A stretch of DNA of 64,000 nucleotides from GCA_000165345.1 CM000433.1:288001-352000; one strand, 5' to 3'. Shown: positions 1-31,303, counted from the first letter of the stretch. Notes: generated by a model not told the origin, from the letters alone. A program made the numbers and translations.

Positions 1-1287
1 AAGCGAATAAGCATATTTAATATTAAAAGGAACATTAGATTCGAATGATTTTGAATTATATACAGTTACAAAATGGATATTTGCATTTTCATATTTACCA
101 ATTTGAAAATATGCATCTCCTAATGTCAAATGTAAATCAATAAAATCTTCTAAGCTGTTATATTCATTTATAATTTTAGAAACTTGGAGTGCGGGAATGT
201 AATTTCCAAAATTAAGATTTGCCACTGCATATTTGGTTGCAATATCAATTGGAACGTTTTTCAAAAATTGATTATCAATTATTTCATTAGTATTATGTTG
301 AGTTAGTTGATTAAATATCGAATTAAAATCATTTGATTGAGTATTCATTTTTCCAAAATAATTATGAATTAGATCAACACACTTCTGGTATAATTTCAAA
401 TCAATATAAACTTCGCATAACATATTAACGATATTTATGTCATCACAATACTCTATACAGCTTTCAAGAATTTCCGCTGCTAAGCTCAACTTTCCAATTT
501 TATGATAGCATCTAGCAAGCTCTTTCCCCAAGAGTGGGTCGCCAGGGTGCCTCCAAAATAATATTTTTAGCTGTTGTATACACCTATTAATATCATTTAC
601 TGAATAATATGCACTACTAAGTTCAAACCGTATTTCATCTTCTAATTGTGCAGCCGATTCTTGCCCACCTAAATTCTCAGAGTATTCTATGTTTTTAATA
701 CATTTAGAGTAACAGTATATTGCTCTGTTCCAATCTTGAATTTCAGCACTCATTTGTCCTATTCTTCTCCATAAAAAAAAATCGGTGCTTACTAGGTGAG
801 CAGCAACTAAGTAAAATCCAATTGCCTTTTCTTTATCATCTAGTTCTTGTTCATATATAAGACCCAGCATATGGAAAGGGTCATGTAATCCTGGAGCTTT
901 GACAACGATTTCTTCGAGTATTTCGATTGCTAAGATGAATTTTTTTTCTAAATAAGCATCATTAGCTCGTTGCAACAATTTCTCGATTTCAGTTGAAACA
1001 TTTTGTTGTGACTTAGTTTTTTTTCGATGGCTTAAGTCTCTTCTTCTTTTCCTTTCATTTGAATATTTCGAAGTGCTAAATTCAAGTGAAAGCATGTTCT
1101 CAGAATCAGATTCGTCTTCCGAAAAATTATCAAAAAATTGGCTTAAAATATTTGAACTTTGACCATTTTTAAGCCCAGAATCACCAAATTTTAATAATTC
1201 ACCCATGTATGGCAGCTCTAATATATTTTGTTCATCATCGCCAATTTCATTGCTAAGTGAAGATGTAGTTGGATGAATTGTATTCAT
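1..1287 (-). CDS. TPR-repeat protein, TFIIIC subunit Tfc4/GTF3C3-like; 5' part only, the ORF runs off the window start
   Basis: Open frame from ATG at 1287 to position 1 (429 codons, no stop). Acidic/Ser-rich N-terminus, then TPR-like helices including '...KEKAIGFYLVAAHLVSTDFFLWRRIGQMS...', which resembles the AAHL...W motif of TFIIIC TPR subunits. Absent from the ORF track because no stop lies in the window. Confidence 0.45.
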   Translation of the reverse strand, partial: MNTIHPTTSSLSNEIGDDEQNILELPYMGELLKFGDSGLKNGQSSNILSQFFDNFSEDESDSENMLSLEFSTSKYSNERKRRRDLSHRKKTKSQQNVSTEIEKLLQRANDAYLEKKFILAIEILEEIVVKAPGLHDPFHMLGLIYEQELDDKEKAIGFYLVAAHLVSTDFFLWRRIGQMSAEIQDWNRAIYCYSKCIKNIEYSENLGGQESAAQLEDEIRFELSSAYYSVNDINRCIQQLKILFWRHPGDPLLGKELARCYHKIGKLSLAAEILESCIEYCDDINIVNMLCEVYIDLKLYQKCVDLIHNYFGKMNTQSNDFNSIFNQLTQHNTNEIIDNQFLKNVPIDIATKYAVANLNFGNYIPALQVSKIINEYNSLEDFIDLHLTLGDAYFQIGKYENANIHFVTVYNSKSFESNVPFNIKYAYSL

Positions 1288-1440
1288 AATTATAAGTTTA
1301 GTATATGCCGCATTTTAAAAAATATGTATTAAAAAAAACCAAATAAAATTTCAAAAAAACACTTGAAATTGTTTACTCATGAAAATAATCACATCCCATT
1401 TTCTTTGGGATAAACAAACATTTTAGTAATAGCCTGGAGT

Positions 1441-4360
1441 TCATTCATTAAAATATTTTGTTTTCAATACTTCTGCGCAAGACCAGTTGAAGTCTAATTT
1501 TGTATCTTGGAATTGCTTGCACTTATTGGAAAGACTGATAGTACTTAAGTCATTTTCGAATGGTCCCAACTGATTAATTTTTTCAATGTAAAATAGGGAT
1601 CTCTTAAAATCCTTGTTAATGAAAAATATCAATGCTTTAGTATGAAATTTAGATTTTAAAAGCGAAATCGGATCGGAATCATTTACAGTATTCAATACAT
1701 GATAAATTACTGTAGGGTTGCTTTTCCCTTGCACAACAACAACATCCAATGGGCATATTACAAACCTTTTCTGCACTTCTTTATTTACGAAGACATTGTT
1801 ACTTATTATTATGTCTGCAGAATAACGCCTAGTTAAAGATTCGATTCTACTGGCCAAATTAACTCCATCACCCATAATTCCGTACTTCATTCTTTTACTG
1901 CATCCAATGTTCCCAATCAGGACGTGATCTGTATGAATTCCACACTTAATGTTAATTTCTGGAATGTAGTTATTTCCGAAAGATCTAGATTTTAATTTTA
2001 ATTGCTTTTTCATTTTTAAAGACGCAGCTACCGCAGCTGCTGAATGGTTTTTAACAGCCATAGGTGAATTCCAAATTACTAGGATTGCATCTCCAGCAAT
2101 TTCTAGTAGGTTACCATGAAATTCTTCGATTATTTTAACCATTTCATCAAAATAATTAGTTAATAAGTAAAACAGTAATAATGGGTCAATCCTTTCTGCA
2201 ATACCAGTAAAACCAACAATATCTGAAAATAGAATTGTTATTTCCTTATACTGAGGACTAAGTGTTGAAAAGTCAAACTTCCTTAAGAGTGACGCTGCGA
2301 CACCTTGCGGAAGATATTTAGAGAGCGAATCCACATATTTTTTCAGAGATTCTGCGCAATGATTGGATAAAAACTCTGATAAATAGTCATTCATTGATAA
2401 ATTAATCTGAGAATTATCTTCATTAGAAAAAGACAAATTCTTTTCAGCTAACTTCAAATTACCATAAATCAAATCATACTTGTTTATTATTCGATTGTAA
2501 CTTTTCAATGATGAAGAAAAATACATCTGATCTACTTTAAGATGAAATATTGAACTTAAAAAAATAATCAGAAAATAAAAGTATTTCTGAATTATAGATG
2601 CAGTACAGTTGGCTTGAGAATATTTGTTGCCATAACTATTAATGATCGTCTCTATAGTAGAAATGAAAGTTACTGCTGCGAAAATAAATAATGTAATGTT
2701 GTAAAACGATTGTTCAAAAATAATTTTTCTATTCAAAAGTAAGCAAGACCCATTAGTAATGTCAAATAAATTGGTGTGGCAATCAATTCTATTCAATAGC
2801 TTTTTTTTGCAGTCCAAAGAAACTAATAACATCTCAAAATCTTCATAAGTTAGTTTTTTCTTGTTTGAAATGTATTCCTGATAACTTGAGATGCCAGTTT
2901 TCCTGTAAAAGCATATAAAACCATTAAATTCCTTACTGAACAGCCTCGGCAACCTGCGATCATTAAACTTCAGAGAAATAAAGAAAGATTTAAGAATAGC
3001 GAGTATCTGTGACTTACAAAATAAACAAAGTTTAAGGTAAACTAGTTTAAAATGTGAATAAAATTGATTATAAATTAGCATGAAACGTTGATTATTATTT
3101 GAATTTTTTGTAAATTTTCGTTCCTTTAAAGATAAAGTGGGAATATTGTATTCTAACCCGAAGAATTTATTTTGAATCCAATCAAAATTTTGAAACAAAA
3201 TATGTATACAATGATTGGTTAACCAGATTGCTTTGATCAAAAATATCGATTCCTAACTTTGTACAAATACTTTCGAATTCGGAAGATGAAATCATTGAAC
3301 TTATATCATTGCTAATAGAATAAAAAATTTGCTTGAGCTGAGTCCTGATAATTTCCGTAACTTGGAATTTATTATACTTGTTAGTAAATTTGCACTGAAG
3401 AATGAAAATAATACGATAAATATATGAATAATATAAAAGTTGAGCATAAATATTAAAAAATTCTTTAATTAGGCCCTCACTGCCATAAAAGTATAGAGTT
3501 GTTAAAATCAAATGGATCATTTCTATAGCCATGCCCATTTTTGGTATAGATTTCCAATTAAAAATATAGAAAAATATATCGAAGCAAATATTAATTACAG
3601 ACAAAGCAATAATTATAATCTCTGAGAGATGATTAATGGATATATATTTGCTTCTCAATATATTTATGTTCATAATGCGTATAACTTGAATTGCTAACTC
3701 TATTAATGATTTGCTACAAATTTTATAATATTCATTCAAAAACTTTAACAGGATAATTGAAACTTTATTATTTTCATGATTTGAAAATAACTGGACACCT
3801 TTTTTTAAACCAAAAAAATTATTAATGTCGTGAATAATATACTTATCAATATTTTTAATCTCAATACCAGGTGATGAATGATCTTGCCTCAAAGTATTAA
3901 GATTTTTTATATGTTGAAAATTTAAATCAGAAAGTTGTAACCGATTAACATGATTAATTAGTAAGTCAAATAACGGTAAGATACAGTTTCTGTGCGTTTT
4001 TATATTAATTACTCGACGCAGACGCCTTTGTTCCTTTACCAAATGCTGATTTTCATTTATGTATATTAATTCCAAAAAATCAAAATCTTGATAGGTCGAT
4101 AAAGATTTAGTGCTATTCAATATATTTTTAAAAGAGCATAAAAAATTGATTTCCTTTCTAAACGAGAGTTTTTTCAAATTAGTATTACATTTTTTTAAGT
4201 AATTTTCTTTCCGATTGGGACTTTGTGTAAACGCAAAAAAGTCTAATTTCGTCCCGGTTCTAATTATAGTTTCAACATTATTGCCCAATAAATTGGTGAA
4301 AGTTGAGTTTAAATTATTGGAATAAAATTTAATTCTATAATTACTATGGTTAATCTGCAT
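1441..4360 (-). CDS. Class III adenylyl/guanylyl cyclase with an N-terminal polytopic, ion-channel-like domain. Encoded as two overlapping ORFs (4360..3182 and 3240..1441) in frames differing by +1.
   Basis: ORF 1441..3240 carries a canonical cyclase homology domain ('ILFSDIVGFTGIAE...EIAGDAILVIWNSP...GIMGDGVNLASRIESL'). ORF 3182..4360 has several hydrophobic helices and a basic 'RRLRRVINIKTHR' segment. Both frames are open across 3182..3252. Deleting one T from the T5 run (plus-strand A5 at 3239..3243) fuses them: ...KLGIDILIKAIWLTNHC.... No credible GT..AG intron lies in the overlap. Confidence 0.7.
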
Positions 4361-4453
4361 ATATTACATATTTGCCACTAAGTTGCAGCTATTAAACAAA
4401 TACTTGATTATGCGGTATCAAATAAAAATACAAAATATGTGGTTAATTATATA

Positions 4454-5278
4454 TTAAAGTTCTTCTCTAGCTGTTGAGATTACATCATTTTCGAAGCTGT
4501 CGGTATTATTAAGAACGTTTGATGTCTTTGTTCCATTAGATATGCTTGAATTTGCTGTCAAATTTTCATGTTTTTCCTTCATTTCCCACCAAACGTGCAT
4601 ATTTGGAATTTTTAGTTTTTGGTCCTTCAATAATCTTGGCCAAATAGTATTAGGCTCCTTCTTAACTAGAGTGCAGGATAGCTTTCCAACAGATCCAAAT
4701 GACCATTCAGATAAATCTGAATCAATATTATCGAATAGCTCGAGTTTAAGAACATATTTTTTTTTTTCGTGTGAATGCGATCCCATTGCAGAAAAAAAAA
4801 ATATATTATCACGAATTGAGACAGTTTCATTTTCTATTTTCAATGCACCCGGAGCATTCCATCTGTAAGTAAACTTTATGTTCAGATATACTTGATCAGA
4901 TGATTGTGCCCATTGAAATGCAGGGGATAATGTTGCAATCTCACTGTGTTTTTTGTTTAATAATCTAGTTAGTTCATTTAACTCTCTTCTAATTGAGAGT
5001 TCCACAGAACGAACAACTGGACTTAAATCAATACCCTGCTCATGCGTTTTAATAATTAATTTCCTTGAGAGTATCCACCAACCTCTCGAAATTGAAGTAT
5101 TTAAATCATCTGCAATTATATTTCTTGTTAATTTTTCAAATATCTGTATTGCATCTGCTTCAGTTTGAGAACTAGCAAAGATAGATGTGTTATTATGCCC
5201 TAGCTGTTCACAGAAAGTAAAGCTACCTAGGAATACAATTAGAAACAAAGAGAAAAAGTAAGTTAGCATATTTTTCAA
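4454..5278 (-). CDS. Secreted protein with a possible CS/p23 (HSP20-like beta-sandwich) domain
   Basis: 274-aa ORF with an N-terminal signal peptide (MLTYFFSLFLIVFLGSFTFC). Middle region 'WAQSSDQVYLNIKF...VSIRDNIFFFSA...KKKYVLKLELFDNID...WSFGSVGKLSCTLVKKE...W' loosely fits a CS-domain pattern. Confidence 0.4.
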   Translation of the reverse strand: MKNMLTYFFSLFLIVFLGSFTFCEQLGHNNTSIFASSQTEADAIQIFEKLTRNIIADDLNTSISRGWWILSRKLIIKTHEQGIDLSPVVRSVELSIRRELNELTRLLNKKHSEIATLSPAFQWAQSSDQVYLNIKFTYRWNAPGALKIENETVSIRDNIFFFSAMGSHSHEKKKYVLKLELFDNIDSDLSEWSFGSVGKLSCTLVKKEPNTIWPRLLKDQKLKIPNMHVWWEMKEKHENLTANSSISNGTKTSNVLNNTDSFENDVISTAREEL

Positions 5279-5466
5279 TATTCTGAAGAAATTCCAATAT
5301 TACCGCAATTTTATCATCAAGCCTAAATTTCATTTAAAAACAAATTAATAAATTAATATCCAATATGGAATTAAATTAACGATATTTTTGTACTTAAGCT
5401 AACCAATTAATCTTATTTTATTCTTATGAAATTTTTATATACTGAGTGCGGATAAACTTTTATTAA

Positions 5467-6769
5467 ATGAATAAAGTTCTGGTAGTAGATAATGGCTCAT
5501 ACACCATTAAAATTGGATATTCAGGTGAAGAATTACCTAGGTAAGTTGAATTTCTTACCAAAAATATTTTAATTCTCTTAGGCATTGCTTCCCAAATTGT
5601 ATCGGAAAAGTTCGAAGAAAAGATAAAATTTATACATCTGATCAAATTTACAGCTTGAATGAATATTTTTCTTATTGTCCATTTTCTGAAGGCTTACTAA
5701 TTGATGTTTCAATGGAAAATGATATTTGGGAATATATTTTTAATAAAATGAATATTTCTCCAGGGGATATTGGTTTATTAGTCACTGAACCATTTCTAAA
5801 CCCATCCTCACTTCAGCATTCTCTTTTCGAAATAATCTTTGAGCAATTTGGTTTTAATAAGGCAATAGTTACAAATCCTCCTGCAATATCACAGTTTGCA
5901 TTCAATCCACAGCTAATTCCCAATACTGAGCAGCAAGTAATTAATCCTTGCTATTTGATTTTAGACTGTGGCTATCAGTGTTGTTTTAGTGTCCCATTTT
6001 TTCAAGGCTCACCAATTTATAAAGCTTGTAGAAGATTGGATATTGGCGGATATCACTTGGATCTTGCATTAAAAAATTTTCTTTCACTCAGACAAGTTGA
6101 TTTATCTAGAAGCTCTTTAATTGTCTCAAAAATTAAAGAAAGTTGCTGCTATATTTCTAAAAATTTTGATCTTGATATTAGCAGGTCGCCAGGAAATAGT
6201 CCTGATAATTTGGTGGAGCAGATATATCAACTCCCTGAATTAAAACCAAACAGTAAGAATTCAAACTTCTACTCTCAGGAGTGTATATCTCCAGATAATA
6301 TTGAACTTGAGAATTTCAATTTAAAAATGGAATCCGAATCTAGCGTGAATTGCGACCCTAGCAGAATCATTAAACTTTATTCTGAAAGGATTACTGTTCC
6401 GGAACTTTTATTTAGTCCTTCAAACGGAGGTTATAACTTTACAGGAATTGCCGACATGGTATCAGAGTCAATCTTATCATCCCCAAAGCATCTCCAAGAG
6501 CTTCTAGCGAATAATATATTGTTAATAGGAGGCTCTACTAAATTCAGAAATTTCGAAGCGAGATTAAATAAGGAGCTTTCCTCTCTACTACCTTCGGTAA
6601 GTTTAAAACTTAAACACTATCATTCAACTAACTTAAGAAGTCGTGGAAAATAAAAACAAGAAAATGCAATCAAAGACCTGACTTCACAACATGGGCAGGT
6701 GGCTCAATTTGGGGAGAAACAAACTTTGATACATATGCACTTTCAAAAAGTAAATACAATGAAATCTGA
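5467..6769 (+). CDS. ARP6: Actin-related protein Arp6, 3 exons: 5467..5540, 5582..6596, 6638..6769
   Basis: Exon 1 'MNKVLVVDNGSYTIKIGYSGEELPR' ends at a GTAAGT donor. A 41-nt intron and AG acceptor put exon 2 in the frame of ORF 5655..6653 ('HCFPNCIGK...LLIDVSMENDIWEYIF...LLVTEPFLNP...LILDCGYQ...'). A second GTAAGT donor at 6597 and an AG at 6636-6637 join an unannotated 3' exon encoding the actin-fold C-terminus 'KSWKIKTRKCNQRPDFTTWAGGSIWGETNFDTYALSKSKYNEI*'. Block-by-block similarity to human ACTR6. Confidence 0.8.
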
Positions 6770-6841
6770 CAAAAATTTTGTAAACATTACAATTGTTTGA
6801 TATAAATCAATTTATTTGAATTATTTAAGCGGCCCAAAAAA

Positions 6842-6866
6842 GTTCCCCGTCGCACGCGGGGATAAC
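6842..6866 (+). promoter_or_regulatory. GC-rich imperfect palindrome (CCCCGTCGCACGCGGGG) about 50 bp upstream of the RRM gene ATG
   Basis: It is an isolated GC island in an AT-rich intergenic region with CCCCG...CGGGG arms, so it could form a hairpin or be a cis element. It is of the same class as the other upstream GC motifs listed here. Confidence 0.3.
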
Positions 6867-6913
6867 TTTCTGTTTTTTCTACCCATTTATACTTTTCACA
6901 TTTCCTTCGTAAT

Positions 6914-7675
6914 ATGCCAGAGGCAAAAAAACGGGGAAGAAAACCAATTTTTCGAAAAATGGAGGAGGATAATTCTGAGCCACAAACATGCCAAGCTGAA
7001 GAAGGCAATAGCCAAACCCAACATGAATTGGAACAGGCTGAACCAATTCAAGAAGCTACAAATGCGGAGTCAGATGAGAAGAACCAAGTAGCCCCTCAGA
7101 TTGAACGAAGTAATGATCCTTCATGTACACTCTATGTTTGCAGGCTTTCTTTAAAAACAAAAGAAGATGACTTACGCCGGCTATTTGAGGATTATGGTGA
7201 AGTAACTGATTGTCATTTAGTTACTAATCCATTATCTGGCGAAAGCAGGTGTTTTGGGTTCGTAACTATGGGTAATGAGGAGGAAGCAGCGCGTGCAAAA
7301 GATGCACTGGATGGGAAAGAATATCAAGATGCAAGTTTGAAGGTTGAGACAGCAAGACGTGCTAAGCCATATGATCCCACTCCAGGAGAATATAAAGGGC
7401 CCCAATATCGATCAATTAAATATAATTCAAGAACTGGGTATTCTCGTTCTTCACATCGTGGCAATTCATTTAGACATTCTACTAGGAGTAGATATGACTA
7501 TCCACCGCCATCTCATTCGAGGGGTGATCAATACAACAGACACAATGATGACTATTACAACAGATACTATGATAGCAGATACCCTAGACCGGATGATTAT
7601 CACTCCTCTAGGTACCACTCACCGCCACGTTATTCTAGAGCAGATCCGTACGACTCAAGATATAGCAGACGATAA
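6914..7675 (+). CDS. RRM-containing RNA-binding protein with a C-terminal RS/RY-rich low-complexity tail (Tra2/SR-protein-like)
   Basis: RNP-type RRM ('LYVCRLSLKTKEDDLRRLFEDYGEVTDCHLV...CFGFVTMGNEEEAARAKDALDGKEY'), followed by an Arg/Ser/Tyr/Asp-rich repeat region (RSRYDYPPPSHSRGD...RYHSPPRYSRADPYDSRYSRR). Confidence 0.7.
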   Translation: MPEAKKRGRKPIFRKMEEDNSEPQTCQAEEGNSQTQHELEQAEPIQEATNAESDEKNQVAPQIERSNDPSCTLYVCRLSLKTKEDDLRRLFEDYGEVTDCHLVTNPLSGESRCFGFVTMGNEEEAARAKDALDGKEYQDASLKVETARRAKPYDPTPGEYKGPQYRSIKYNSRTGYSRSSHRGNSFRHSTRSRYDYPPPSHSRGDQYNRHNDDYYNRYYDSRYPRPDDYHSSRYHSPPRYSRADPYDSRYSRR

Positions 7676-7837
7676 AGTTATTAATCAAACTAAAATTAAC
7701 TAAATTTACTGTTTTTACAATATCCAGTCTAGAATAGAGTTTTGTACATTTCAAATTTTCCCGTCTTCTTATTCAGATTCCGCTTATTTCCCGTATTTTC
7801 CCCTTTTGTTCCCCCTTTTATTTTTATTTTATGAAAG

Positions 7838-8659
7838 ATGCAAGAAATTGATTACAAGTTGGTGAATGGAACTCATAGTCTCTTGACAACTTACTTTCTC
7901 GTCTCGACTGTTGCTGTAATTTTTTCCAGCGTGGTCCGGTTTGCTAATTTGATCACGACTCACGGTAAACTTCGCAAGAAGAATTTATCCTCAGAGAATA
8001 TTGGAAGTACCTCAACTGATAAGGTAATTTATTTAATATTGGGGTTGAGCGTGAATAAAGGGTGGTTTCGTTATTTCTATCTAGTTGGGGTATTCACAAC
8101 ATTAATTTGCGTATATTTAGGCTATCCAAATTGCCACAGATTACTTTTTTTTTTAATACATGTGATTAGAAGGCTATATGAAGAAGTATTTATTTCATAT
8201 CATAACACAAATTATAGTAAAATGAGTATTTTTGTATTTTTATTTGGTATATCATACTATATTATAATGCCTATAACATTATTGGCTACCCAAGATTTCT
8301 ATGGGAAATTTGTAGTTTTGCAATATATATCTTTCGCAGCATTTTCTTTAGTTCAATATAAAAGTCATGTTAAACTTTCAAACATTAGGAGAGCAAATTC
8401 CGAGGAGTATGGTATTCCTTATGGTGGTATGTTTAAATTTGTTAGTTGCCCACACTATTTCAGCGAGATTGGAATATATATATCATTATTTTTTGATGCT
8501 ATTTTTAATTCAAATAATTTGCATATTGCGGCCGCTCTATTATATATTATTAGTTGTATGTATTTAAATGCAATACGAGCACATAAATGGTATATTAACT
8601 ATTACAAGGAGTCATACCTATCTCTAAATCGCAAAGCAATTATTCCATATATTGTTTAA
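7838..8659 (+). CDS. Polyprenol reductase / steroid 5-alpha-reductase family membrane protein (SRD5A3/DFG10-like)
   Basis: Polytopic 273-aa ORF. It has the N-terminal 'HGKLRKK...VNKGWFRYFY' and the C-terminal catalytic-region signature 'YGIPYGGMFKFVSCPHYFSEIGIY...H.WY..Y' typical of the SRD5A/TECR family. Confidence 0.7.
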   Translation: MQEIDYKLVNGTHSLLTTYFLVSTVAVIFSSVVRFANLITTHGKLRKKNLSSENIGSTSTDKVIYLILGLSVNKGWFRYFYLVGVFTTLICVYLGYPNCHRLLFFLIHVIRRLYEEVFISYHNTNYSKMSIFVFLFGISYYIIMPITLLATQDFYGKFVVLQYISFAAFSLVQYKSHVKLSNIRRANSEEYGIPYGGMFKFVSCPHYFSEIGIYISLFFDAIFNSNNLHIAAALLYIISCMYLNAIRAHKWYINYYKESYLSLNRKAIIPYIV

Positions 8660-9051
8660 TTTTCTGATAATATCATTTTTAGGCGTCCATCCTTCCAAGA
8701 TTCATACGGATTTCTGATTATTCTAAATTCAATGTCATTTAAACTTAAATTTGGTGCATTAAGATTAACACCTAGAATGTGAAACAACCAATAATTATTC
8801 TGTAATCTTTCTGCGAGCTTCCATTCATTGAAAGAAATACGAAAAAAGTTCTTTTCTTTTTTTGATGATGATTTAACTTCAACAAATATTTCCTCCTTTG
8901 TTCCTCTTGTTTTATCCATGAAAACTAAAATAATGTCGTAAGGAAGACCCGATTCTGCTGTTTCATTAACCCAAGTTATATTGAAATAATCAATTCCAAG
9001 CTCGTTACTAAACTTTTCTTTCAAGGAATCAAAGGCTAGTTTTTCTCCCAT
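8656..9051 (-). CDS. DUF3883-like (PD-(D/E)xK restriction-endonuclease-fold) domain ORF. It is probably the frameshifted C-terminal domain of the upstream giant gene.
   Basis: 131-aa ORF 'GEKLAFDSL...WVNETAESGLPYDIILVF...EEIFVEVKSS...FFRISFNEWKLAERLQNNYWLFHI' matches the DUF3883 pattern (G-E-x-L-A; WV..E; YDI; [VI]EVK[ST]; F.[IL]S.NEW..A). Its frame is open upstream of its ATG. It sits 11 nt after the stop of ORF 9063..15161, in the +1 frame. Confidence 0.6.
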   Translation of the reverse strand: MGEKLAFDSLKEKFSNELGIDYFNITWVNETAESGLPYDIILVFMDKTRGTKEEIFVEVKSSSKKEKNFFRISFNEWKLAERLQNNYWLFHILGVNLNAPNLSLNDIEFRIIRNPYESWKDGRLKMILSEN

Positions 9052-9062
9052 CTTACCTATTT

Positions 9063-12000
9063 CTAAAATATCTTTTTTGGACAGTTAGTATTATATTCTA
9101 TTTGAAGTTCTTCGTTTAATTGAACATCATTGCTCAATTTAAGAGCAGCATTATCCACATAATCAGATAATAGAAAATACTTTAGATCAATTTTAATTCC
9201 AATTTCTATTTCTATCTTCTTAATCCAATTAATTATAAATTTATCCCAAGCCATTTCATTTCTCGAAGATTCGAATTTCTTGATTGCATCTTTGAATATA
9301 TGTTTTGTTACCATGATGCTTTTTAAGTTTGGATAATATTTTGGAAAGAAAGAAGTAATAAATGTGAGGATAGATAAAAGTGCCTCTTCAATCTCATCAC
9401 CACCTAATTTATTTTGGTGTTTAACATACAGCTTATTTGTTTTAAAATCGAATAGAGCAGGAGTATAAAATGATTTTTCCAAGCATTTAATAGAAATATT
9501 CGTATTAGAAACCACTATATTGCTTTTTGAAATTAATTCGCTCCAATTTTTTCTTTTTTTAACTTTATCCTTAATAGATTCTTCATACAGTGGCCCAAAT
9601 ATATTAATAATTATTTCAAAATAAAAGGTTGAATCTAAACTGAGCTCAGTATTAGGATAAATATCTAAACTTAGATCTTCTGAATTCTTAAATAATTGAA
9701 AACAAATAGTATTCCAATCGTGGGTTAGTTCATCAAAATCTAAATTTTGCATATTTAAACTTGGCTGCATAATCGTAAACATGATAGGGGACCATACGAC
9801 TTTTTTTTCTGAAAAAAACCTATATGCAAAATGATGAAATAACATGGAATTTGAAAATATAACTTCATTATTATCTCTAATTAAATCTGCATTTAACCAT
9901 ATACAATAATTATTTTTTTTAATAGTTGGCAAATTTAGTAAACCATATAGAATAGTTTTGTCATATTTATATAGTTGAGTAACAATACTTACATATGTCA
10001 ACAATTGTTTTGAGTCTGCTTCAATTCGCTTTATTTTATATATTTCTATTAAATGAGCGATTAGATGCTTTCTTTCAGGATTTAAGGGAACTCCAAGTAA
10101 TAAAAAGAAACTTAAAATATCATTGATTGAAATACTTAATTTGTAAATATTAGAAAATTGGTAAAACAAGGAGTGGCTTTTTGGTAATATATTCTCATCA
10201 CTCCAATATAACTCCTCTAGATTCTTCCAAATTAAATTCTTGCATTCATCTTGAAAAGGAAACCGCAAATTTTTCCTTAAAGTGTCTAAAGAATTCATTG
10301 ATATGTTTGATTTAGATTCTTTAATTATTAATTCTAGCAATGAAATATATGAACTTGGATTTATTTGATTTAAATTATATAAACTTATTTTGTAGAAGCT
10401 GGGATTATGTAAAGCTTCAATTAATGAACATAAATACTCCAAGCTAATTTCTGTTATAGTAGAAAATGCATCTGATAAGGTAATCGACATGTTTTTTTCT
10501 GTATTATCCAAAATTAAAAAATTTACAAATTTTGATATTACTTTGTGATGCTGAGTATTAGTATATAACGTCAACATTTTTGGTGGACAAAGGTGTTGAA
10601 AAATGAAATTGTTGTTTGATAGGTATTTCGAGACAAAAATTGGATATGATGAAAACTGAAGCTGTACAAATGAAGGCTTTTTTATAATTTCATGAATATT
10701 GATAGACCAATATATTTGAATTTCTTCCCAGAAATCGCAAACACAATTTATTATTTGATTTGATATTGTCGTTAGTGTCTCTTCAAAATATTCATTTCCA
10801 GTATTTTTTGATAACATATCATTCATTATTATTGCCAGTGACTCTATTCCATGACAGTAGAAATCTGTTATTGATATAAAATTTGATTTTTTAACATTAT
10901 AAATAGATTCAATATGTTGATCTATTAACTCACTATTGTTTAACTTACTAACTGACCTGAGATGCTCCTGATAGTCATTTAAATTATTAAATTCAACTTT
11001 TTCAAAATAGAAAGGTAAAATTGACACTCCAAACTTGCTAAAATATGAGTTCCAAAATGATTCATCAGCATACTGGAGATATTTTTTGCTAAATGCGTGA
11101 TAAGAAAAATTGTTAATTAAATCCTCATTTTTACTATCCAAAATCCGTTTAATGTTTTCAATTAGCGAATACTTCTTGCTGGTAACAAATAAATGAAAAT
11201 TTTTTGGTGATATTGGTAATAATTCATCATTTGAGTCAGCTGCAAGTGTCTGTTTATTGCTGGTCGGACTATAATTTGATTTTGCAAGTAAAAAAGTAAA
11301 GAAAATATGATCATCTGTGCTAATGTCGTTGCAGTCAGCAAGACTTTCATAAATTATTTCATAATACTCATCAACTTTAAGGAATGATGGCCCAAGAATT
11401 TGAATAAAATTAATTATCTTGCTATAAATAAATAGTTCATCTTTAAAAAACTCTTTTAGTTGAGAAATAAAGTCTCTCTTAATAAAGTGTATTCCCAACT
11501 TTGAAATTGAGGGCATATCCTCTTCCATAATAAATAACTGTTTTTTAGAATTAGTATCAATTGGTTCTATATATCGACCTTCTTCTGTTAGAAACAACGG
11601 TAAGCGTTTTAGCTTTTGCAAATCAAAATTAATATCTGCATAAGAATCAATTAAATTTTCAATCAAAAGAAAAAGATTAAAATACCATTCATAATTTCTG
11701 CCAAAATAAGAATAATCAGAAATTATTCCTTTAATTATATCAACCAAAATATCTATATTGAATTCAGTTATTCCTAAATCTCTCAATAAAATATTCTCTG
11801 TATTATTTGCGAATGCATTATTAATTAAAAACTTATTAGAATATTTTTTTAACAAATAAGAAAATTCATTAATATTTGGAAAAATATCTAATAATATTTT
11901 AAATGTCCTTGAGTCATTATTTATAAAAACAGAATTTGAAGGTTGTATGAATATTTTTTCGCATGTATAAATACATTTTTCATTTATTAAAGCTTTATTA

Positions 12001-15000
12001 ATTTTGGGAATTATTGGTATGAAAAATTCGTCTATATTATCAGCTTTTGTTGGTAATATTCCTAGAAACGACTTCTTTAATAAATGAAAACCATTTGTTT
12101 CACGTAACTTTGATATTAAATAAATAATTGCATTAGGTATAATTTCGCGAATATAAATGTTCCAATTTGAATCAATTGATATTGATTCCCTAGATGATGT
12201 AAGCTCGAAGTCTGCTTGAAGTATAAATTTCAATCCATATGACCTAATAGGCAAAAATGAAAACACCTCTTTATTGTCATAATTACATTCTCCATCAAAT
12301 GTATCTGATTCGTTATTTATTTCTATTCCAATAGCCAAATTGTTTAATTTTTTATTTTTAACCAAGTTTGAAATATTTTTGGGAATTTCAAAATTATAAT
12401 TCACAATTAAAAATGATTTTGTAATATTTCTATTGGATGAAAGTTTTCGCTTCTTATTTGTGGGATCACACATTATGTGTTTAAAAATATTTACCAAGAT
12501 TAAATCTTTTGAAATTAACTTTTCAGATCTTGTTATTACCGTAACCCTATCATTAGTAATTAGTTTAATTCTTTTTAATTTATTTGTAAATAGGATTATA
12601 TTATCATTTAATTTTAAATCTTCAAAAATTATATCTTCTTTATAAGGGAGCCAAAATTTAGTTTTATAAGTAGAAACTTCTATTTCATACTCATTATGAA
12701 ATTTGTGATTTGGAATTAAATTATATAATTCTTCATCAACCCATTCCGGAAAAATATAGGATCCATGCTTTGAATTTAAGTTGAACTTGAAACAATAGCC
12801 ATTACTAAAAATAAATGGAGTGTTTGTAATTAAAAATACGCTTTTAAATCCGATTCCAAAGCAACCAATTTTCTTTTCATTAAAAACTTTTGAGCTATTT
12901 CCAATATCACAAATTGAACTAATATCTCCTTCAGTAAATCCAATTTCATTATTAATTACAAGCACACCATTTTTGTGAAATACAAAAATAATTGAAGGTA
13001 TTTTTCCAATACAAGAACAATACTGGTTATCATCAGCATTTTGTATCAACTCGAATATAAAGTGATTAATTTTCGTGTAAAGTTTAATTGATAGATTTTT
13101 GCATGATTGATTTATTATACTAGTGTAATTTTGAATTATCTGGTTATAATCTTTATCAAGAGCTTTTTCTGAAATACCAAATTTTTGTTTTTGAATAGAC
13201 AAAATAAAACTTTTACAGTCAAAAATATTTATGGACTTATAGTTTGAACAATATTCACATCTTAACTCTTCAAAAATAAATTCATCTTCAGTAGACATTT
13301 TTACTAAGCATTCATTTTCTTCCAAACTATCTTCAACTTCAAGCGATATTGTTAAGTTTAAAGAATTGCAATAAAACTTGTTATAAAAATCATTTCTGAT
13401 TTTGGAAGGTAAAACCTGAATTAACTTATTTAGTTCAGAAATATTGTTATTTTTTGATATGCTTTCAGATAATGATTTAACAAATTCGTCTCTTTCAACC
13501 TTTAAAACAAAAAGAATTGTCATTAATAAGTAGTCCCATAAGTCCAAATATAGAACTGGAGGGCAAATTCGCAAAATGCAAGAAAAAAAATCAATTAAAT
13601 TAAATGATTTACAAATACATGATGATATATCAGTTCTTAGTATTTCTTTTGGAAATAATTTAATAAAGTTTTCAACTCCATTTTCTTGAATACATCCGCC
13701 TATAAAATAATTTAAAGTGTTAATCTCATTACATTGAGCTATTGAATCAATCATCAAGGAATAATAAGCATGTGCTGTAGAATATTTTTCACTATTAGGC
13801 TTTAAAATTTTATATATGCATATTTGGCAATTATTAATTTTTACGTTTGTTGATTTAGGCTTATTACCATTTTTTGAAAATTTGATAAAATTAAAATGTC
13901 TTAATAACTCGTTATCAATATTCTTATCTAAAAATTCTGTTAACTCTCCATATCTAATATGGTTATTTGCTGAATACCAAAATAAATGATCATATAAATC
14001 AATTAATATTGGTGCTGAATGAATAATTTTTACTAAATTATTTGAGAAAAAACCATCGTTAAGAGAATCATTTAAGCTTGAAATTAATAAGTCAGTCTGA
14101 TTAATTTTAAGAGATAGTAAATCAACTACTCGATTATTTTGTTTTACATTGCTTTCGACAAGAAACGCTTCTCTAGTCATATCTTCAAGGCTTAAACCTA
14201 ATAAGTCTAAATCTAATCCAAATTCCTCTATTAAAATTAAATTAATTGATTCTTTGATAAATTTTTGATCAGTTTGATTTAAATATCTTTTAACCGTTTT
14301 AAAGATTGTATGAAAAAATTTACAATCAAATTGATCAGACTTTTTGCCTAATTTTTCATCTTCAAATCGTAAACAAATACCATATGTCGAAAAAAACTCT
14401 AAAATTCCACTAGTTAATATTTCTTTGTTTGTATTTGATATTGTTTTTTGACTAAAAATCTTACTTAGAACATAAAAAATACTGGTAGAATTGAAAATTC
14501 CTATTCCTTCCAAAGAACTTGACTCTATTGCCTGAAGAAAGTCAATAATTGTAGAATAATCGTTTCTATTAATATTTGATAATGAAAAATTTATCGAGTT
14601 CAATAACGAGTCTACTTCAATCGAATTTCTCATATGATTTGCATAATTAATTGAATTAATAAAATTGTCATCTTTTGTTTTTATTAAATGATATCTCCAT
14701 GAAATTGAGCTTAGAGATTTTAAAATAGCATAAAGTACTCTTTTATATCTTTGTTTTGATTCTAGAGAGAACAGATCTTGATTTTCTAGAAAATTATTGA
14801 AATGAAAAAGTCTATTTATTGATTTCAAAAACAAGTTGAAATGATTTTCTGCCTTATCATAGCATGATGCAAATGAATTTTTTGTATTAATATCGTTTAA
14901 TATTGAATATATGTTAAATATCTCGCGACTATATCTCGATTGAAATTTTTTTGAGACTGCTCTAATATGTGAACAAAATGACTTATCTTTGCTTGGGCAA

Positions 15001-15161
15001 GTACACTCAAAAAGAAGCATATCTACAATTCGATAATCTGTGCTGAATGAGCAAACATTATAAATATCTGGGTCTTTATCACAAAGCATAATGCCATGGG
15101 GGTTTTGAGTAATAATATCAACTTTCTTATTCATTGTTTCGAAAGTTATCACATTTTTCAA
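9063..15161 (-). CDS. Giant (2032 aa) SWIM zinc-finger plus sacsin/NO VEIN-type GHKL ATPase (HATPase_c_3) protein
   Basis: N-terminal SWIM-type motif 'CTCPSKDKSFCSHIRAV'. Central sacsin-repeat/GHKL signature 'FIFELIQNADDN...GCFGIGFKSVF'. Single uninterrupted ORF. Terminates in an A6 run (plus-strand T6 at 9073..9078) immediately before the DUF3883 ORF. Confidence 0.7.
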   Translation of the reverse strand: MKNVITFETMNKKVDIITQNPHGIMLCDKDPDIYNVCSFSTDYRIVDMLLFECTCPSKDKSFCSHIRAVSKKFQSRYSREIFNIYSILNDINTKNSFASCYDKAENHFNLFLKSINRLFHFNNFLENQDLFSLESKQRYKRVLYAILKSLSSISWRYHLIKTKDDNFINSINYANHMRNSIEVDSLLNSINFSLSNINRNDYSTIIDFLQAIESSSLEGIGIFNSTSIFYVLSKIFSQKTISNTNKEILTSGILEFFSTYGICLRFEDEKLGKKSDQFDCKFFHTIFKTVKRYLNQTDQKFIKESINLILIEEFGLDLDLLGLSLEDMTREAFLVESNVKQNNRVVDLLSLKINQTDLLISSLNDSLNDGFFSNNLVKIIHSAPILIDLYDHLFWYSANNHIRYGELTEFLDKNIDNELLRHFNFIKFSKNGNKPKSTNVKINNCQICIYKILKPNSEKYSTAHAYYSLMIDSIAQCNEINTLNYFIGGCIQENGVENFIKLFPKEILRTDISSCICKSFNLIDFFSCILRICPPVLYLDLWDYLLMTILFVLKVERDEFVKSLSESISKNNNISELNKLIQVLPSKIRNDFYNKFYCNSLNLTISLEVEDSLEENECLVKMSTEDEFIFEELRCEYCSNYKSINIFDCKSFILSIQKQKFGISEKALDKDYNQIIQNYTSIINQSCKNLSIKLYTKINHFIFELIQNADDNQYCSCIGKIPSIIFVFHKNGVLVINNEIGFTEGDISSICDIGNSSKVFNEKKIGCFGIGFKSVFLITNTPFIFSNGYCFKFNLNSKHGSYIFPEWVDEELYNLIPNHKFHNEYEIEVSTYKTKFWLPYKEDIIFEDLKLNDNIILFTNKLKRIKLITNDRVTVITRSEKLISKDLILVNIFKHIMCDPTNKKRKLSSNRNITKSFLIVNYNFEIPKNISNLVKNKKLNNLAIGIEINNESDTFDGECNYDNKEVFSFLPIRSYGLKFILQADFELTSSRESISIDSNWNIYIREIIPNAIIYLISKLRETNGFHLLKKSFLGILPTKADNIDEFFIPIIPKINKALINEKCIYTCEKIFIQPSNSVFINNDSRTFKILLDIFPNINEFSYLLKKYSNKFLINNAFANNTENILLRDLGITEFNIDILVDIIKGIISDYSYFGRNYEWYFNLFLLIENLIDSYADINFDLQKLKRLPLFLTEEGRYIEPIDTNSKKQLFIMEEDMPSISKLGIHFIKRDFISQLKEFFKDELFIYSKIINFIQILGPSFLKVDEYYEIIYESLADCNDISTDDHIFFTFLLAKSNYSPTSNKQTLAADSNDELLPISPKNFHLFVTSKKYSLIENIKRILDSKNEDLINNFSYHAFSKKYLQYADESFWNSYFSKFGVSILPFYFEKVEFNNLNDYQEHLRSVSKLNNSELIDQHIESIYNVKKSNFISITDFYCHGIESLAIIMNDMLSKNTGNEYFEETLTTISNQIINCVCDFWEEIQIYWSINIHEIIKKPSFVQLQFSSYPIFVSKYLSNNNFIFQHLCPPKMLTLYTNTQHHKVISKFVNFLILDNTEKNMSITLSDAFSTITEISLEYLCSLIEALHNPSFYKISLYNLNQINPSSYISLLELIIKESKSNISMNSLDTLRKNLRFPFQDECKNLIWKNLEELYWSDENILPKSHSLFYQFSNIYKLSISINDILSFFLLLGVPLNPERKHLIAHLIEIYKIKRIEADSKQLLTYVSIVTQLYKYDKTILYGLLNLPTIKKNNYCIWLNADLIRDNNEVIFSNSMLFHHFAYRFFSEKKVVWSPIMFTIMQPSLNMQNLDFDELTHDWNTICFQLFKNSEDLSLDIYPNTELSLDSTFYFEIIINIFGPLYEESIKDKVKKRKNWSELISKSNIVVSNTNISIKCLEKSFYTPALFDFKTNKLYVKHQNKLGGDEIEEALLSILTFITSFFPKYYPNLKSIMVTKHIFKDAIKKFESSRNEMAWDKFIINWIKKIEIEIGIKIDLKYFLLSDYVDNAALKLSNDVQLNEELQIEYNTNCPKKIF

Positions 15162-15187: not shown

Positions 15188-15203
15188 ATATTTAATATTA
15201 ATC

Positions 15204-16028
15204 ATGAGAGCATATTCGATTATTATTTGTAACGAAAATGATGAAAGCAGTGTTAAAATACTGTCATCCTGTTATTGTCTTTCTAGGTACGGTGAAATAC
15301 CCCCATTTTAAACATTAAATTTGCAAGATTAGATTTTCCTATTTTGAACGAAGTTATATTAAAGAAATTTTTATTTTTATTGTAAAATCCATTACTCCAA
15401 AGGTAAGTAAATTATTATCTTTATATCCAACATATTTTCCATAGCTAAATTCAGGAGTGCAGGAAATAATTACCCATGATGAGTATACAATATTTTCATA
15501 TAAATGGAGTGATGGACTTTCAATATCTATGATATGTGACGATGACTTCCCTGCAAGGTAAGTATGAATTAAAAGACTTAAGTAAAACTATATTCTTTAG
15601 GATTGCATTTTCATCTATATTTGAAGCTTATATGAACATTAAAGATAAAAATCAACATGAATTGTCTTTATTAGACGATAAATTAATTTACAGAACAATT
15701 TTTACAATACTGAATAAATATAAAGTAAGTTGAATAAGTAGTAATTGATACTTCAAACTATTTGAATAGGAACCTCTAATTTCAGACGCAATTACTGAAT
15801 CTCAAATAAAAATTGACAAGGCTCGAGTAAGTTTTTTTTTTCTTAATTTATTCCCTTTCCATTTTATTTTTTCTACAGGAAGCTATTAATGTTTCACTTA
15901 AATCTTTTTTAGATAGAGGAGAAAATTTGGATGAGCTTATACAAAAAAGCAACGATTTGTCTGACTCATCGAAGAAATTATTCAAAATGTCTAAAAAAAC
16001 AAAGAGGCCATGTTGTAGTCTTCAATAA
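15204..16028 (+). CDS. YKT6: Longin SNARE YKT6, 6 exons: 15204..15286, 15333..15402, 15445..15557, 15601..15724, 15770..15826, 15879..16028
   Basis: Spliced product 'MRAYSIIICNENDESSVKILSSCYCLSRFSYFERSYIKEIF...SISMICDDDFPARIAFSSIFEAYMNIKDKNQHE...EPLISDAITESQIKIDKAREAINVSLKSFLDRGENLDELIQKSNDLSDSSKKLFKMSKKTKRPCCSLQ*' aligns along its length with human YKT6 (longin domain, SNARE motif, C-terminal CCxxx lipidation box). Donors are GTACGG/GTAAGT. Introns are 46, 42, 43, 45 and 52 nt. The exon-4 frame matches ORF-track entry 15536..15733. Confidence 0.8.
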
Positions 16029-16118
16029 TATTGCATGCTGCATGTAACTTAATTATTATTGCATGTGCATGCATTCCTTTTTATTTTCGTTTTCAAATAA
16101 ATTGATAGGTATTATTTT

Positions 16119-29400: not shown

Positions 29401-31303
29401 TCAAAAGTTGGCGAGACAACTGATTGTTATAGAGAAGGTTGTTGATAAACGACTTGCAGATTTAAATGAAATGTGGGATAGTACCTACTCGATTGAATAT
29501 TCAATTCAATGGGAGCTAAGAATAAAGGATATGCAGGACACTTATCTATATTTAAACAATGAATATAATAAAAATGCAGAGTTTATTGCAAGGCAACAGC
29601 TTCGTCAATCTCAGCTTCAAATAGGTAATCCTCAGTATCAACAGTTATTAAGTGAGACAAATCAATCAATAGAGATTGCTACTGATGAAATGAAAAAGTT
29701 ATTGAAATTAATGAACGAGCTGAGGCAGAAGAGAAATGAACTAGATACACTTGTTGAATCAGATTTATCAAGAAATTATGCGGAAAAAATAAATACTCTA
29801 AGGAGAAATTCAAAATTATTAGAGGACAATATAAGCAACGATATTAGTATTTTGCAGAAAAAAAATGAAATTTCTCAATTACAACTTAATAGGGACATAA
29901 AATATTTTGAGATTACAAATATGAGATCAGCTCTTTCTGAAAGGCAGAAAAAGAGCGAGGGGCTCATCGAGGCAAATATGTGGCTAAATACCAAGAATGA
30001 GCAATTATTTTCTGACTTTGAATCTAAGTTAAATGATGATTTGAGTTCTTTGACATACTCCTTTGAAAAGCCTGAAAAACATGGAGCATATTTAGCTTCA
30101 GAAGAAATTCCAAACGAAGCATTATCGGAGCTTAATAAATATAAAGAGCAACTCAAGATTAGTTTATTTAACGTAATGTTCTATAATGAGAACATAAATG
30201 ATAATGACATGCAACATATAAGTCAATTTGAATCAATGGATTCAAATATATTGGCTTATAAAGAGATATTTGAATCAGAAGGTGAAATAGATGATGGAAC
30301 ATTGTATGGTGAATTGAGTACTCTGGAGTGGAATATCATTCAATCTAGATGGGAGCTACTTAAGATGAAACATTTTTATATAGAAAAAAAAGAAAAAATA
30401 TTGATGGAGTGCGCAGAAATGAGAAACTCCTTAGACGAATTAATGCTGCAAAAGTATGGGATGATACCTATTACGAAGTCAAAAAATGTTCCCAGCAAAG
30501 CAAGCATTTTGGCTATGAAAGGAATAGGTATTAATCTAGGCGATGAGCTGGGAGTTTCTGATGAGAGCAATAACCTTAGCTATGATAGTAAAGTTCTTAA
30601 ACTTGTGCAAAAAAGACTCGAAGATGCAAACTCCGTGTTCGAACAAGAGCTTTCGAATAGATTGAGTATTCTAGATGAAAAAATAAGAGAAGGGAGAATA
30701 AGATTACATGAAGCTGCAAGAGAAGTTGTCTCAAATTGGGAGTTGCAACAGTCAACAGCTTCATTTAGATTTGCTTCTCCTCAAAATAAAGACAGAATGA
30801 GAGAAGCATTTGTAAGAGAGCGTGATAAGGTGACAAAAGATGAAATTAAAAAAACGATACCGATAAAACTAGAAAAACATATATTGCTTCAGCAACAAAA
30901 GGATCGTGCGTTACAATTCAAACGTGACATAGATTGGATACATACGCCTGGAAGGGTAGCGAGCCAATTAATGAAATTTGAACAAAAAATTAGAATTTTC
31001 CAGAAAAAAAGACATGATCACTATGAGCGAACCTTGAGGTTTCTTACATTTCAAGCAGAGCAAGTCGATCGAATCAAACAAATCGATGAAGAACTGAATG
31101 CCGATGAAACAAATAGTTCAAGGTCCAATGGACTTGGTATTCCACAAATCAATATTCAAGAACTAAGGAGAGAAAGAGAGAAACTAGAATCAGATCTTGC
31201 TCAAAAAAGGAGAGAGTATCAACTGCAACTTTCTAGTTTTCAAAATGAAAGAGATGCACTTTATGACGTGTCAAAAAATCTTAAAGATGATGAAAATAGT
31301 TAG
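26498..31303 (+). CDS. Large (1601 aa) signal-peptide-bearing protein with a roughly 500-aa N-terminal region and a roughly 1000-aa Glu/Lys/Leu/Gln-rich coiled-coil C-terminal region
   Basis: Uninterrupted ORF. N-terminus MKITFLVLFFGCVFVSVYSG is a typical signal peptide. The long heptad-like, charged-residue-rich C-terminal two-thirds predicts extended coiled coil. Family unknown. Confidence 0.6.
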   Translation: MKITFLVLFFGCVFVSVYSGEEKAFDNTKTQWDFILSAIKSYPNIKCKNLPKEVPGGFYSHGETKFFPETNEKIRILTENCVGALSSLLELHLPRSQRKYSFKFSDINEVDKTLKSFCSDTASRYFSFSGFIQSIKTENPIGTKSMGGRADRNLLNSSEDSFSKCEGINNQIPLRKKNIFFQGKTTKEKKFSANQLGFSKTPSELTTEGLEYNASEYEQFESEGTPISKYKTPKVLTTILKSVLDESKEDLPALEITISQLPKQVQNRVLTFFRSKDVDGIVESLNKLPRQIVESFINSIELEKKQIKFQLGSNSEQLEFSIPLFEDEWRAIIDFMSDPSSPIQYEKKINPYEQIKIPKEFKYSNGVLKKFIQYCRRGIRSLAYERYISEDGVTYYSYNENNLNGILIAGNDSDHRKEQVEAFCYMVFEKLYGKKEKEMMNKRHLKALEIKKSWEDGGVKGAVIDQLLKGFSDEINDERLQWLFLVESASIPNPLVYSTDLPKHTIPISFTSKPTDAATEITGKIRSFVYNCRNALMTLGVEKFPGTKSPLNKVHLGLDKVQGLIKFCKSVAHRYMGRLVEWFNIIQASLDDDIIKLIDMKNPEFRCPDYYEYEDESKLADNCSKTILMMINENKKAEENRRAKVWKGLKINSQPNHVNHQIRLFCNSVANERPEIRIASVDELSEQGIGGELSSVEEIQGYNKEQQALEIVEERLKTIESKQIEEKANSAYKLDKWNQLQDFMVENRRIREKLDKHSRRQFQKLFEIEDAQKDLLLSLLSEDIINEKKKETIRDLIDKYSSDLLSMRTEWADLLFQISNNNRKITEAEIEIMNFVHQALDYIAISHRIELVNSSTMANMIHWEETLIEKERTYINSKMLEYSSRLDSDQKIQKLKDMHYKRRQLFEKNLYRILPRKLWNRIHSLAAKGLHPLILAKISEKELKERKSLIVKLHEEKNNIIAKYDSEGQKLARQLIVIEKVVDKRLADLNEMWDSTYSIEYSIQWELRIKDMQDTYLYLNNEYNKNAEFIARQQLRQSQLQIGNPQYQQLLSETNQSIEIATDEMKKLLKLMNELRQKRNELDTLVESDLSRNYAEKINTLRRNSKLLEDNISNDISILQKKNEISQLQLNRDIKYFEITNMRSALSERQKKSEGLIEANMWLNTKNEQLFSDFESKLNDDLSSLTYSFEKPEKHGAYLASEEIPNEALSELNKYKEQLKISLFNVMFYNENINDNDMQHISQFESMDSNILAYKEIFESEGEIDDGTLYGELSTLEWNIIQSRWELLKMKHFYIEKKEKILMECAEMRNSLDELMLQKYGMIPITKSKNVPSKASILAMKGIGINLGDELGVSDESNNLSYDSKVLKLVQKRLEDANSVFEQELSNRLSILDEKIREGRIRLHEAAREVVSNWELQQSTASFRFASPQNKDRMREAFVRERDKVTKDEIKKTIPIKLEKHILLQQQKDRALQFKRDIDWIHTPGRVASQLMKFEQKIRIFQKKRHDHYERTLRFLTFQAEQVDRIKQIDEELNADETNSSRSNGLGIPQINIQELRREREKLESDLAQKRREYQLQLSSFQNERDALYDVSKNLKDDENS

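Follow-up and report, generated by a model that had tools for sequence, protein, structure and literature searches.

The 64,000-nucleotide stretch analyzed here (the window; GCA_000165345.1, CM000433.1:288001-352000) is identified by its sequence as part of chromosome 5 of Cryptosporidium parvum Iowa II in the Sanger assembly of 2004, and its minus strand carries at 8656..15134 what we read as a single gene falsely split in two. With one missing T restored, the gene (ATG at 15134..15132, stop codon TAA at 8658..8656) encodes a protein of 2159 amino acids (aa) in which a SWIM-like module, a sacsin-type GHKL domain, and a NOV_C domain follow one another. We place the probability of this explanation as a whole, a single falsely split gene of the NO VEIN/TmtA family, at roughly 0.85. 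The product comprises four parts: an apicomplexan-specific, SWIM-like zinc-finger module, a genus-specific helical linker of ~530 residues, a body of ~1500 residues collinear with bacterial TmtA (the one protein that makes up the anti-phage system Tiamat, as modeled in PADLOC), and a C-terminal NOV_C domain. Within the body, the Hsp90/MutL-like GHKL domain comes first and a long middle region follows.

Results

One missing base between two reading frames

In the record as deposited, a long open reading frame (ORF) of 2032 codons, counted from TTG, occupies 15161..9063 on the minus strand and ends in a TAG at 9065..9063; its first ATG, at 15134, gives a product of 2023 aa. A second ORF of 131 aa (9051..8656, minus strand) lies in a different frame and begins 11 nucleotides (nt) past this stop codon. 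EAK88112.1 ("superfamily I helicase") and EAK88113.1 ("hypothetical protein") are identical to the long and the short product, respectively; both entries are from C. parvum Iowa II, and each is encoded on one contig only. When 9 to 12.5 kb of the window was aligned with three C. parvum chromosomes (L002, L004, and L005), there were 0 mismatches and exactly 1 gap. In place of the GATATTTTAG of the window, the other assemblies show GATTATTTTAG, and the alignment around the gap sets CCAAAAAAGATTATTTTAGAA in the others against CCAAAAAAGAT-ATTTTAGAA in the window. One T is therefore missing at ~9069-9071: on the minus strand, the window reads GAT-ATT at 9069..9071, a state private to the 2004 record, and all other assemblies read GATTATT. 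What has been lost is one T from a TT dinucleotide, GAT[T]ATT, immediately 3' of a run of six A residues (A6). The false TAG (9063..9065, minus strand) that ends EAK88112.1, and with it the split into products of 2023 and 131 aa, follows from the absence of this single T from the 2004 record.

The isolate has been re-sequenced twice, as IOWA-ATCC (GCA_015245375.1; PacBio and Illumina) and as IOWA II-BGF (GCA_035232765.1; Nanopore and MiSeq) (PMC8744675, PMC12179316). Both assemblies contain the extra T, and reading from the annotated start gives in each an ORF of 2159 aa that is identical to a C. parvum protein (P0015; KAL5368564.1/WKS77788.1) that is encoded on 23 contigs, 21 of which are independent read assemblies. 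Restoring one base to the window gene yields a product identical to P0015 and to the ORFs of both re-sequenced genomes. The locus is absent from the published list of variants between IOWA II assemblies (PMC12179316).

A first-pass annotation of the window, made from the sequence alone, had described both ORFs with their coordinates and their 11-nt separation, had noted the A6 run (plus-strand T6) at 9073..9078, and had joined the ORFs into a single gene across a 1-nt indel for which a sequence error was one of two explanations offered; all of this was borne out, with the error as the cause, the gene being intact in the re-sequenced isolate and in relatives. The contiguous protein that it forecast at about 2170 aa is indeed contiguous and is 2159 aa long. 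Where it erred was in locating the break within the A6 run. That run, at 9073..9078 on the minus strand, is A6 in every assembly compared and is not the site of error. Extending it to seven, the repair first envisaged, restores the frame but turns residue 2022 from I into D, and we rejected this repair: the true junction, ...NTNCPKKIILEIGKMGEK..., reads PKKIILE and not PKKDILE.

That the two ORFs are one gene is, on these alignments, nearly certain, and the idea of two independent genes was rejected: orthologues and 23 contigs encode a single uninterrupted protein. The break itself is very probably an assembly error and not a real variant; an error in the 2004 record is almost certain because the re-sequenced isolate, other C. 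parvum genomes, and the orthologues are all intact. The opposing account holds that the deletion is real, a private and very recent frameshift in the 2004 Iowa II DNA that severed the nuclease domain. The record itself does read GATATT, the T was lost from a dinucleotide and not from the long homopolymer that is the classic context for error, and the comparison covered assemblies, not the raw reads of the 2004 project. However, the T is present in both independently made newer sequences of this isolate lineage and in all 23 P0015 contigs, against one contig with the shortened products, and the downstream domain shows no decay, with 0 nonsynonymous changes relative to Cryptosporidium hominis. 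We consider a real deletion very improbable, and the alternative offered in the first-pass annotation, a very recent truncation, is not supported, the re-sequenced genomes of the same isolate being intact.

Programmed -1 ribosomal frameshifting could also, in principle, join the two ORFs. A slippery heptamer of the classic X_XXY_YYZ form, A_AAA_AAG, made up of the A6 run and its two flanking bases, an A before it and a G after it (9072-9079, minus strand), stands in the zero frame and in the correct phase just ahead of the stop codon, the downstream ORF lies in the -1 frame, and a slip there would give exactly the ...PKKDILEIGK... fusion drawn in the first-pass annotation. No frame break occurs in any other assembly or species, however, and PKKIILE is encoded in one frame; the heptamer is simply a pair of Lys codons, and we judge its presence coincidental. 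Programmed frameshifting is effectively refuted because the frame is intact in all relatives, and we give it a negligible chance.

Conservation and selection

The best homologues of the gene are all from Cryptosporidium. Comparison with orthologues, a check proposed in the first-pass annotation, found the gene contiguous in each of 12 other Cryptosporidium species or genotypes, with products of 2139-2286 aa that retain both domains (SACS and NOV_C); among them are C. hominis, C. meleagridis, the chipmunk genotype, C. ubiquitum, C. canis, C. felis, C. ryanae, C. bovis, C. muris, C. andersoni, and C. serpentis. Between C. parvum and C. hominis, the ratio of nonsynonymous to synonymous substitution rates (dN/dS) is 0.19 over the whole gene, and the 137 codons past the false stop differ by 4 synonymous and 0 nonsynonymous changes. 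The gene is under purifying selection and is conserved across the genus.

Beyond Cryptosporidium, four of five Babesia proteins (2257-2877 aa) likewise carry SACS and NOV_C by Pfam; the remaining entry, from Babesia sp. Xinjiang (1014 aa), has NOV_C only. NCBI calls the Babesia bovis orthologue (P0029; XP_001608749.1) a "DnaJ-like protein subfamily C member," and Pfam detects only SACS and NOV_C in it. Sacsin also has a DnaJ domain, and the name probably derives from similarity to sacsin. Word-indexed searches with a Cryptosporidium-plus-Babesia alignment and with the B. bovis protein alone brought up no new apicomplexan members and no Theileria, Plasmodium, or Toxoplasma protein, a result that is not evidence of absence, as only candidates sharing exact words were scored.

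The sacsin-type GHKL domain and the TmtA-type body

The first-pass annotation had recognized a GHKL domain of the sacsin/NO VEIN type together with a C-terminal DUF3883 (NOV_C) domain, and profile searches upheld both. In a Pfam scan of the long ORF, aa 683-781 (12792..13088, minus strand) matched PF25794 (SACS, sacsin-type GHKL) at 50.8 bits against a cutoff of 32.8, and the NCBIfam model NF047352 (sacsin "ATP-binding-like" domain) scored 69.2 bits against a cutoff of 50. The motifs quoted in that annotation (CTCPSKDKSFCSH, ELIQNADDN, GCFGIGFKSVF, and PYD...EVKSS...NEW) are all present. The GHKL core contains ELIQNADDN, NNEIGF, and GCFGIGFKSVF, the first and last of which represent motif I (ExxxNAxD) and motif III (GxFGIGFKSVF), both invariant in the aligned family. 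In motif II, which reads NNExGF, Asn takes the position that Asp holds in the canonical DxGxG; sacsin, NO VEIN-like proteins of plants, and one TmtA-type protein from a metagenome have the same substitution. In GHKL enzymes, the Asp of the canonical DxGxG contacts adenine. Given the Asn of motif II, binding of ATP by the domain is plausible but, like hydrolysis, uncertain. A search of the PDB by sequence detected only the Hsp90-like domains of sacsin (5v44-5v47; E ~2e-9, aa 729-783).

The similarity to TmtA extends far beyond the GHKL core. Residues 641-2145 (8701..13214, minus strand) match the PADLOC TmtA model PDLC03972 end to end, with an E value of 2.5e-75 over profile positions 4-1286 of 1302, and 6 further TmtA models in the set PDLC03964-03972 also match the Cryptosporidium protein. 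PDLC03972 is matched end to end by P0009, a NO VEIN-like protein of plants, as well (E 9e-131, aa 958-2481), and very strongly by two metagenome proteins that start directly at the GHKL domain (P0012 and P0013, 1425 and 1553 aa). On this evidence, membership of the protein in the NO VEIN/TmtA family is very likely, and the NO VEIN proteins of eukaryotes look like TmtA-type bodies to which lineage-specific N-terminal extensions have been added, the apicomplexan one bearing a SWIM module.

A further reading is the superfamily I helicase of the GenBank product name. Several Cryptosporidium records carry such names, which are all that speaks for a helicase, but no helicase or P-loop model matched the protein in Pfam (E<=0.1) or NCBIfam (E<=0.01), and no Walker A motif occurs anywhere in its 2159 aa. 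The name is, as far as the sequence can tell, unsupported, and we regard a helicase as next to impossible.

A NOV_C domain at the C terminus

The NOV_C domain (8764..9048, minus strand), which lies past the false stop, scored 73.3 bits with PF13020 (NOV_C/DUF3883) in a Pfam scan of the short ORF, against a cutoff of 22.1. In all intact assemblies and orthologues, it is on the same polypeptide as the GHKL domain. It has the alpha-beta-beta-beta-alpha-beta core fold of the PD-(D/E)xK nuclease superfamily, in which DUF3883 was placed by Steczkiewicz et al. in 2012 (PMC3424549), as the first-pass annotation had also held. The candidate active-site residues are D2067 (8935-8937), E2086 (8878-8880) and K2088 (8872-8874), which form the E2086-V-K2088 motif, and E2104 (8824-8826). 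All four are invariant from Cryptosporidium to Babesia, and in a C-terminal alignment these columns show no variation among plant NO VEIN-like proteins or in a metagenome protein, P0035. In the alignments, therefore, the full set of four catalytic-type residues is intact.

By motif, D2067, E2086, K2088, and E2104 correspond to D1084, E1104, K1106, and E1121 of HmaA, an anti-phage protein of Halomonas with a Snf2 helicase and a NOV_C domain. The NOV_C domain of HmaA is an Mn2+-dependent DNA nickase acting on supercoiled DNA and is required for phage defense (PMC11232893); this nicking is the only experimental activity that we found for a NOV_C domain. Judged from these residues, we see about an even chance that the NOV_C domain of the Cryptosporidium protein is an active nuclease.

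P0035 (1283 aa) is of the TmtA type by its Pfam matches to SACS and NOV_C. Within 490-14778 of an ENA metagenome scaffold (L008), its gene adjoins those for a KAP NTPase and a helix-turn-helix regulator, along with a cluster of Dnd/Dpt type whose products are cysteine desulfurase-like, DUF4007, BrxC/PglY-like, PAPS reductase-like, and DndB-like, a defense island of prokaryotic type.

The N-terminal SWIM-like module and the linker

Residues 1-60 are among the most conserved of the protein, and the SWIM-like module (aa 1-110; 14805..15134, minus strand) is the most conserved N-terminal segment and is common to the Babesia orthologues. Its CxCx8CxH motif, CTCPSKDKSFCSH (aa 44-56; 14967..15005, minus strand), is invariant in 10/10 aligned Cryptosporidium sequences, and CxCx7-8CxH occurs in C. 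muris and in five Babesia species; the pattern common to Cryptosporidium and Babesia, Y.V.S.S...R.VDM..F.C.CP...CSH..A, is SWIM-like. With the Pfam SWIM model PF04434, the C. parvum module scores 14.6-15.5 bits and that of Babesia bigemina 16.4 bits, under the gathering threshold of 19.6; 9/10 family members match at E<=1 (best, 4e-4). Several orthologues, 4 Babesia proteins included, are named "SWIM-type domain-containing protein" in UniRef. The SWIM motif proposed in the first-pass annotation is thus weakly confirmed, the CxCx8CxH signature being present and conserved and the Pfam score falling short. A sequence profile search of the PDB with the module gave no meaningful match.

When a profile of aa 1-660 was compared with 1.84 billion representative proteins, it matched only Cryptosporidium, five Babesia species, and two further sequences; no plant protein was matched, and the Babesia matches were confined to the first ~110 positions, stopping at about profile position 116. 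The segment that follows the module, aa 111-640 (13215..14804, minus strand), is a mostly helical, Cryptosporidium-specific linker for which neither this profile search nor BLASTP against plant P0009 detected any relative beyond the genus. An AlphaFold2 model of aa 1-660, built from a 9-sequence alignment, had a mean predicted local distance difference test score (pLDDT) of 49.7, too poor for a fold search, and shows the linker as helical at low confidence. Within the overall architecture, it is, by these profile matches, only the N-terminal SWIM module that is specific to the lineage of Cryptosporidium and Babesia.

Discussion

We suggest that the SWIM module and the middle region recognize a nucleic acid or protein target, that the GHKL domain acts as a nucleotide-gated dimerization switch comparable to those of MutL, MORC, and Hsp90, and that this switch would license metal-dependent nicking or cleavage of DNA by NOV_C. 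The protein may then serve as a nuclear factor in DNA surveillance, repair, or chromatin function, descended from a defense-type nuclease of prokaryotes. ATP gating of this kind is possible, and by analogy with those systems we hold it tentatively, below an even chance. MutL and MORC/paraMORC follow the same logic, a GHKL module for nucleotide-gated dimerization being linked to an endonuclease, and differ in using another GHKL subfamily and another nuclease fold; no sequence match between them and the Cryptosporidium protein was obtained.

The main functional rival takes the protein for a nonenzymatic scaffold or a factor resembling a chaperone, along the lines proposed for sacsin; the GHKL domain would then not hydrolyze ATP, and NOV_C would only bind nucleic acid. 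It accords with the sacsin-like Asn of motif II in place of the adenine-contacting Asp, with the name "ATP-binding-like" given to the NCBIfam model, and with the fact that plant NO VEIN is known by developmental phenotypes and not by enzymology (as cited in PMC11232893). On the other hand, motifs I and III of the GHKL domain are invariant, the four metal-binding or catalytic-type residues are invariant in Cryptosporidium, Babesia, NO VEIN-like proteins of plants, and the TmtA-type protein P0035, which is the pattern expected of an active site, and the NOV_C domain of one bacterial protein does nick DNA. A scaffold is, in our estimation, rather unlikely.

Several points weigh against our explanation of a falsely split NO VEIN/TmtA gene with an ATP-gated nuclease function. 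In no member of the family does the SWIM module reach the gathering score of Pfam, and with pLDDT values of 31-44 over aa 1-100 its fold could not be checked on the model. The Asn of motif II leaves ATP binding and hydrolysis in doubt, and the frame comparison was made between assemblies. The likeness to Tiamat adds homology and not mechanism, because the mechanism of Tiamat is itself described in the literature as unresolved. A literature search returned no paper on this gene and no biochemical, localization, or expression data for the protein.

Among characterized proteins, the closest parallels are plant NO VEIN (Arabidopsis NOV) and the NOV-like proteins P0009-P0011, which have the sacsin-type GHKL domain, ~450 collinear residues, and, at the C terminus, a NOV_C domain. 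BLASTP against P0009 gave 28% identity over aa 633-1199 (E 2e-49) and 33% over aa 2027-2156, the TmtA profile is matched by both proteins over ~1290 positions, and the plant NOV-like proteins are the best matches outside the apicomplexans. In contrast, the ~950-residue N-terminal region of the plant proteins is unrelated to the 640-residue region of Cryptosporidium (aa 1-632 have no significant alignment to P0009), the CxCxnCxH motif is absent from the plant proteins, and the middle region can be aligned only at the profile level. The first-pass annotation had called the combination an unusual eukaryotic architecture; GHKL plus NOV_C is instead the standard architecture of NO VEIN, found in plants and in a mollusc. 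In the mollusc, Physella acuta, a protein of 3138 aa (P0054) combines SACS with NOV_C, and NO VEIN-like proteins are thus not confined to plants and protists.

TmtA has the same order of GHKL and NOV_C and is homologous end to end over aa 641-2145, a match that suits the earlier idea of a surveillance machine. In TmtA-type proteins, however, the GHKL domain starts ~40-60 residues from the N terminus, whereas the Cryptosporidium protein has a 640-residue, SWIM-bearing extension, and unlike Tiamat, the Cryptosporidium gene lies among housekeeping genes of a eukaryotic chromosome and not in a prokaryotic defense island. Sacsin (SACS repeat region, PDB 5v44-5v47) has the NNxxF variant of motif II and a GRFGIGF motif, but its GHKL modules are repeated, it has a HEPN domain (PF05168) and no NOV_C nuclease, and the similarity is confined to ~100 residues. 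HmaA has a C-terminal NOV_C domain with D...ExK...E (PMC11232893), but a Snf2 helicase motor replaces GHKL, and homology is limited to the C-terminal domain. No paper linking Tiamat to NO VEIN or to sacsin was found in the literature searched.

It can be imagined, though we think it unlikely, that the apicomplexan SWIM-NOV proteins of Cryptosporidium and Babesia are active descendants of a prokaryotic immune nuclease of the Tiamat type, in which SWIM would find the target, GHKL would gate activity by nucleotide, and a PD-(D/E)xK nickase would attack DNA that is foreign or aberrant, and that the whole eukaryotic NO VEIN family is a cross-domain survivor of Tiamat. If this were so, parasites with very small genomes would have retained a function in genome surveillance or defense. 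What can be said already is that purifying selection maintains a large, conserved protein in a parasite whose genome is very compact and that the gene for this protein links plant developmental NO VEIN, sacsin-type GHKL domains, and a bacterial Tiamat protein into one family. Should the nuclease prove active, the protein would offer a tractable eukaryotic handle on the working of Tiamat and NOV proteins.

The gene and its domains are already known, being present in public databases under automatic names, and later assemblies correct the DNA. New here are the exact nature of the error, the apicomplexan SWIM extension common to Cryptosporidium and Babesia, and the end-to-end relationship to TmtA.

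Annotation and genomic neighborhood

In the IOWA-ATCC (L004; CP044418.1) and IOWA-BGF (L005; CP141122.1) sequences, the gene, at 1501-7566 of each locus, is annotated as a 2022-aa "Superfamily I helicase, partial" (QOY41569.1 and WRK32280.1) ending in ...CPKKI, despite DNA in which the frame is open for 2159 aa through NOV_C. From a comparison of annotation with DNA, the truncation in both records is inherited from the older gene model, and the sequence itself does not contain it. The error in the 2004 reference sequence thus still affects annotation, with two later records listing a product that lacks the nuclease domain.

The neighboring genes are eukaryotic and encode actin-like, RRM, steroid dehydrogenase-like, Tcf25, and synaptobrevin/longin proteins. 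At 8656-8659, the stop codon of the gene overlaps, within TTAA, that of the convergent steroid dehydrogenase-like gene (7838..8659, plus strand), which leaves no 3' intergenic spacer. Two plus-strand ORFs of 1601 aa (26498-31303) and 2592 aa (40032-47810) matched no Pfam family at E<=0.001. Upstream, at ~15200-16030 on the minus strand (607-1431 of L004), lies the synaptobrevin/longin gene; its product of 198 aa compares with a span of 825 nt, and the gene probably contains an intron. Gene callers differ between assemblies, giving it 184, 198, or 271 aa. Farther upstream of the gene for the 2159-aa protein, a C/T substitution at 16121 relative to a read assembly (L001; DRR729228) is the sole other difference in 12.5 kb.

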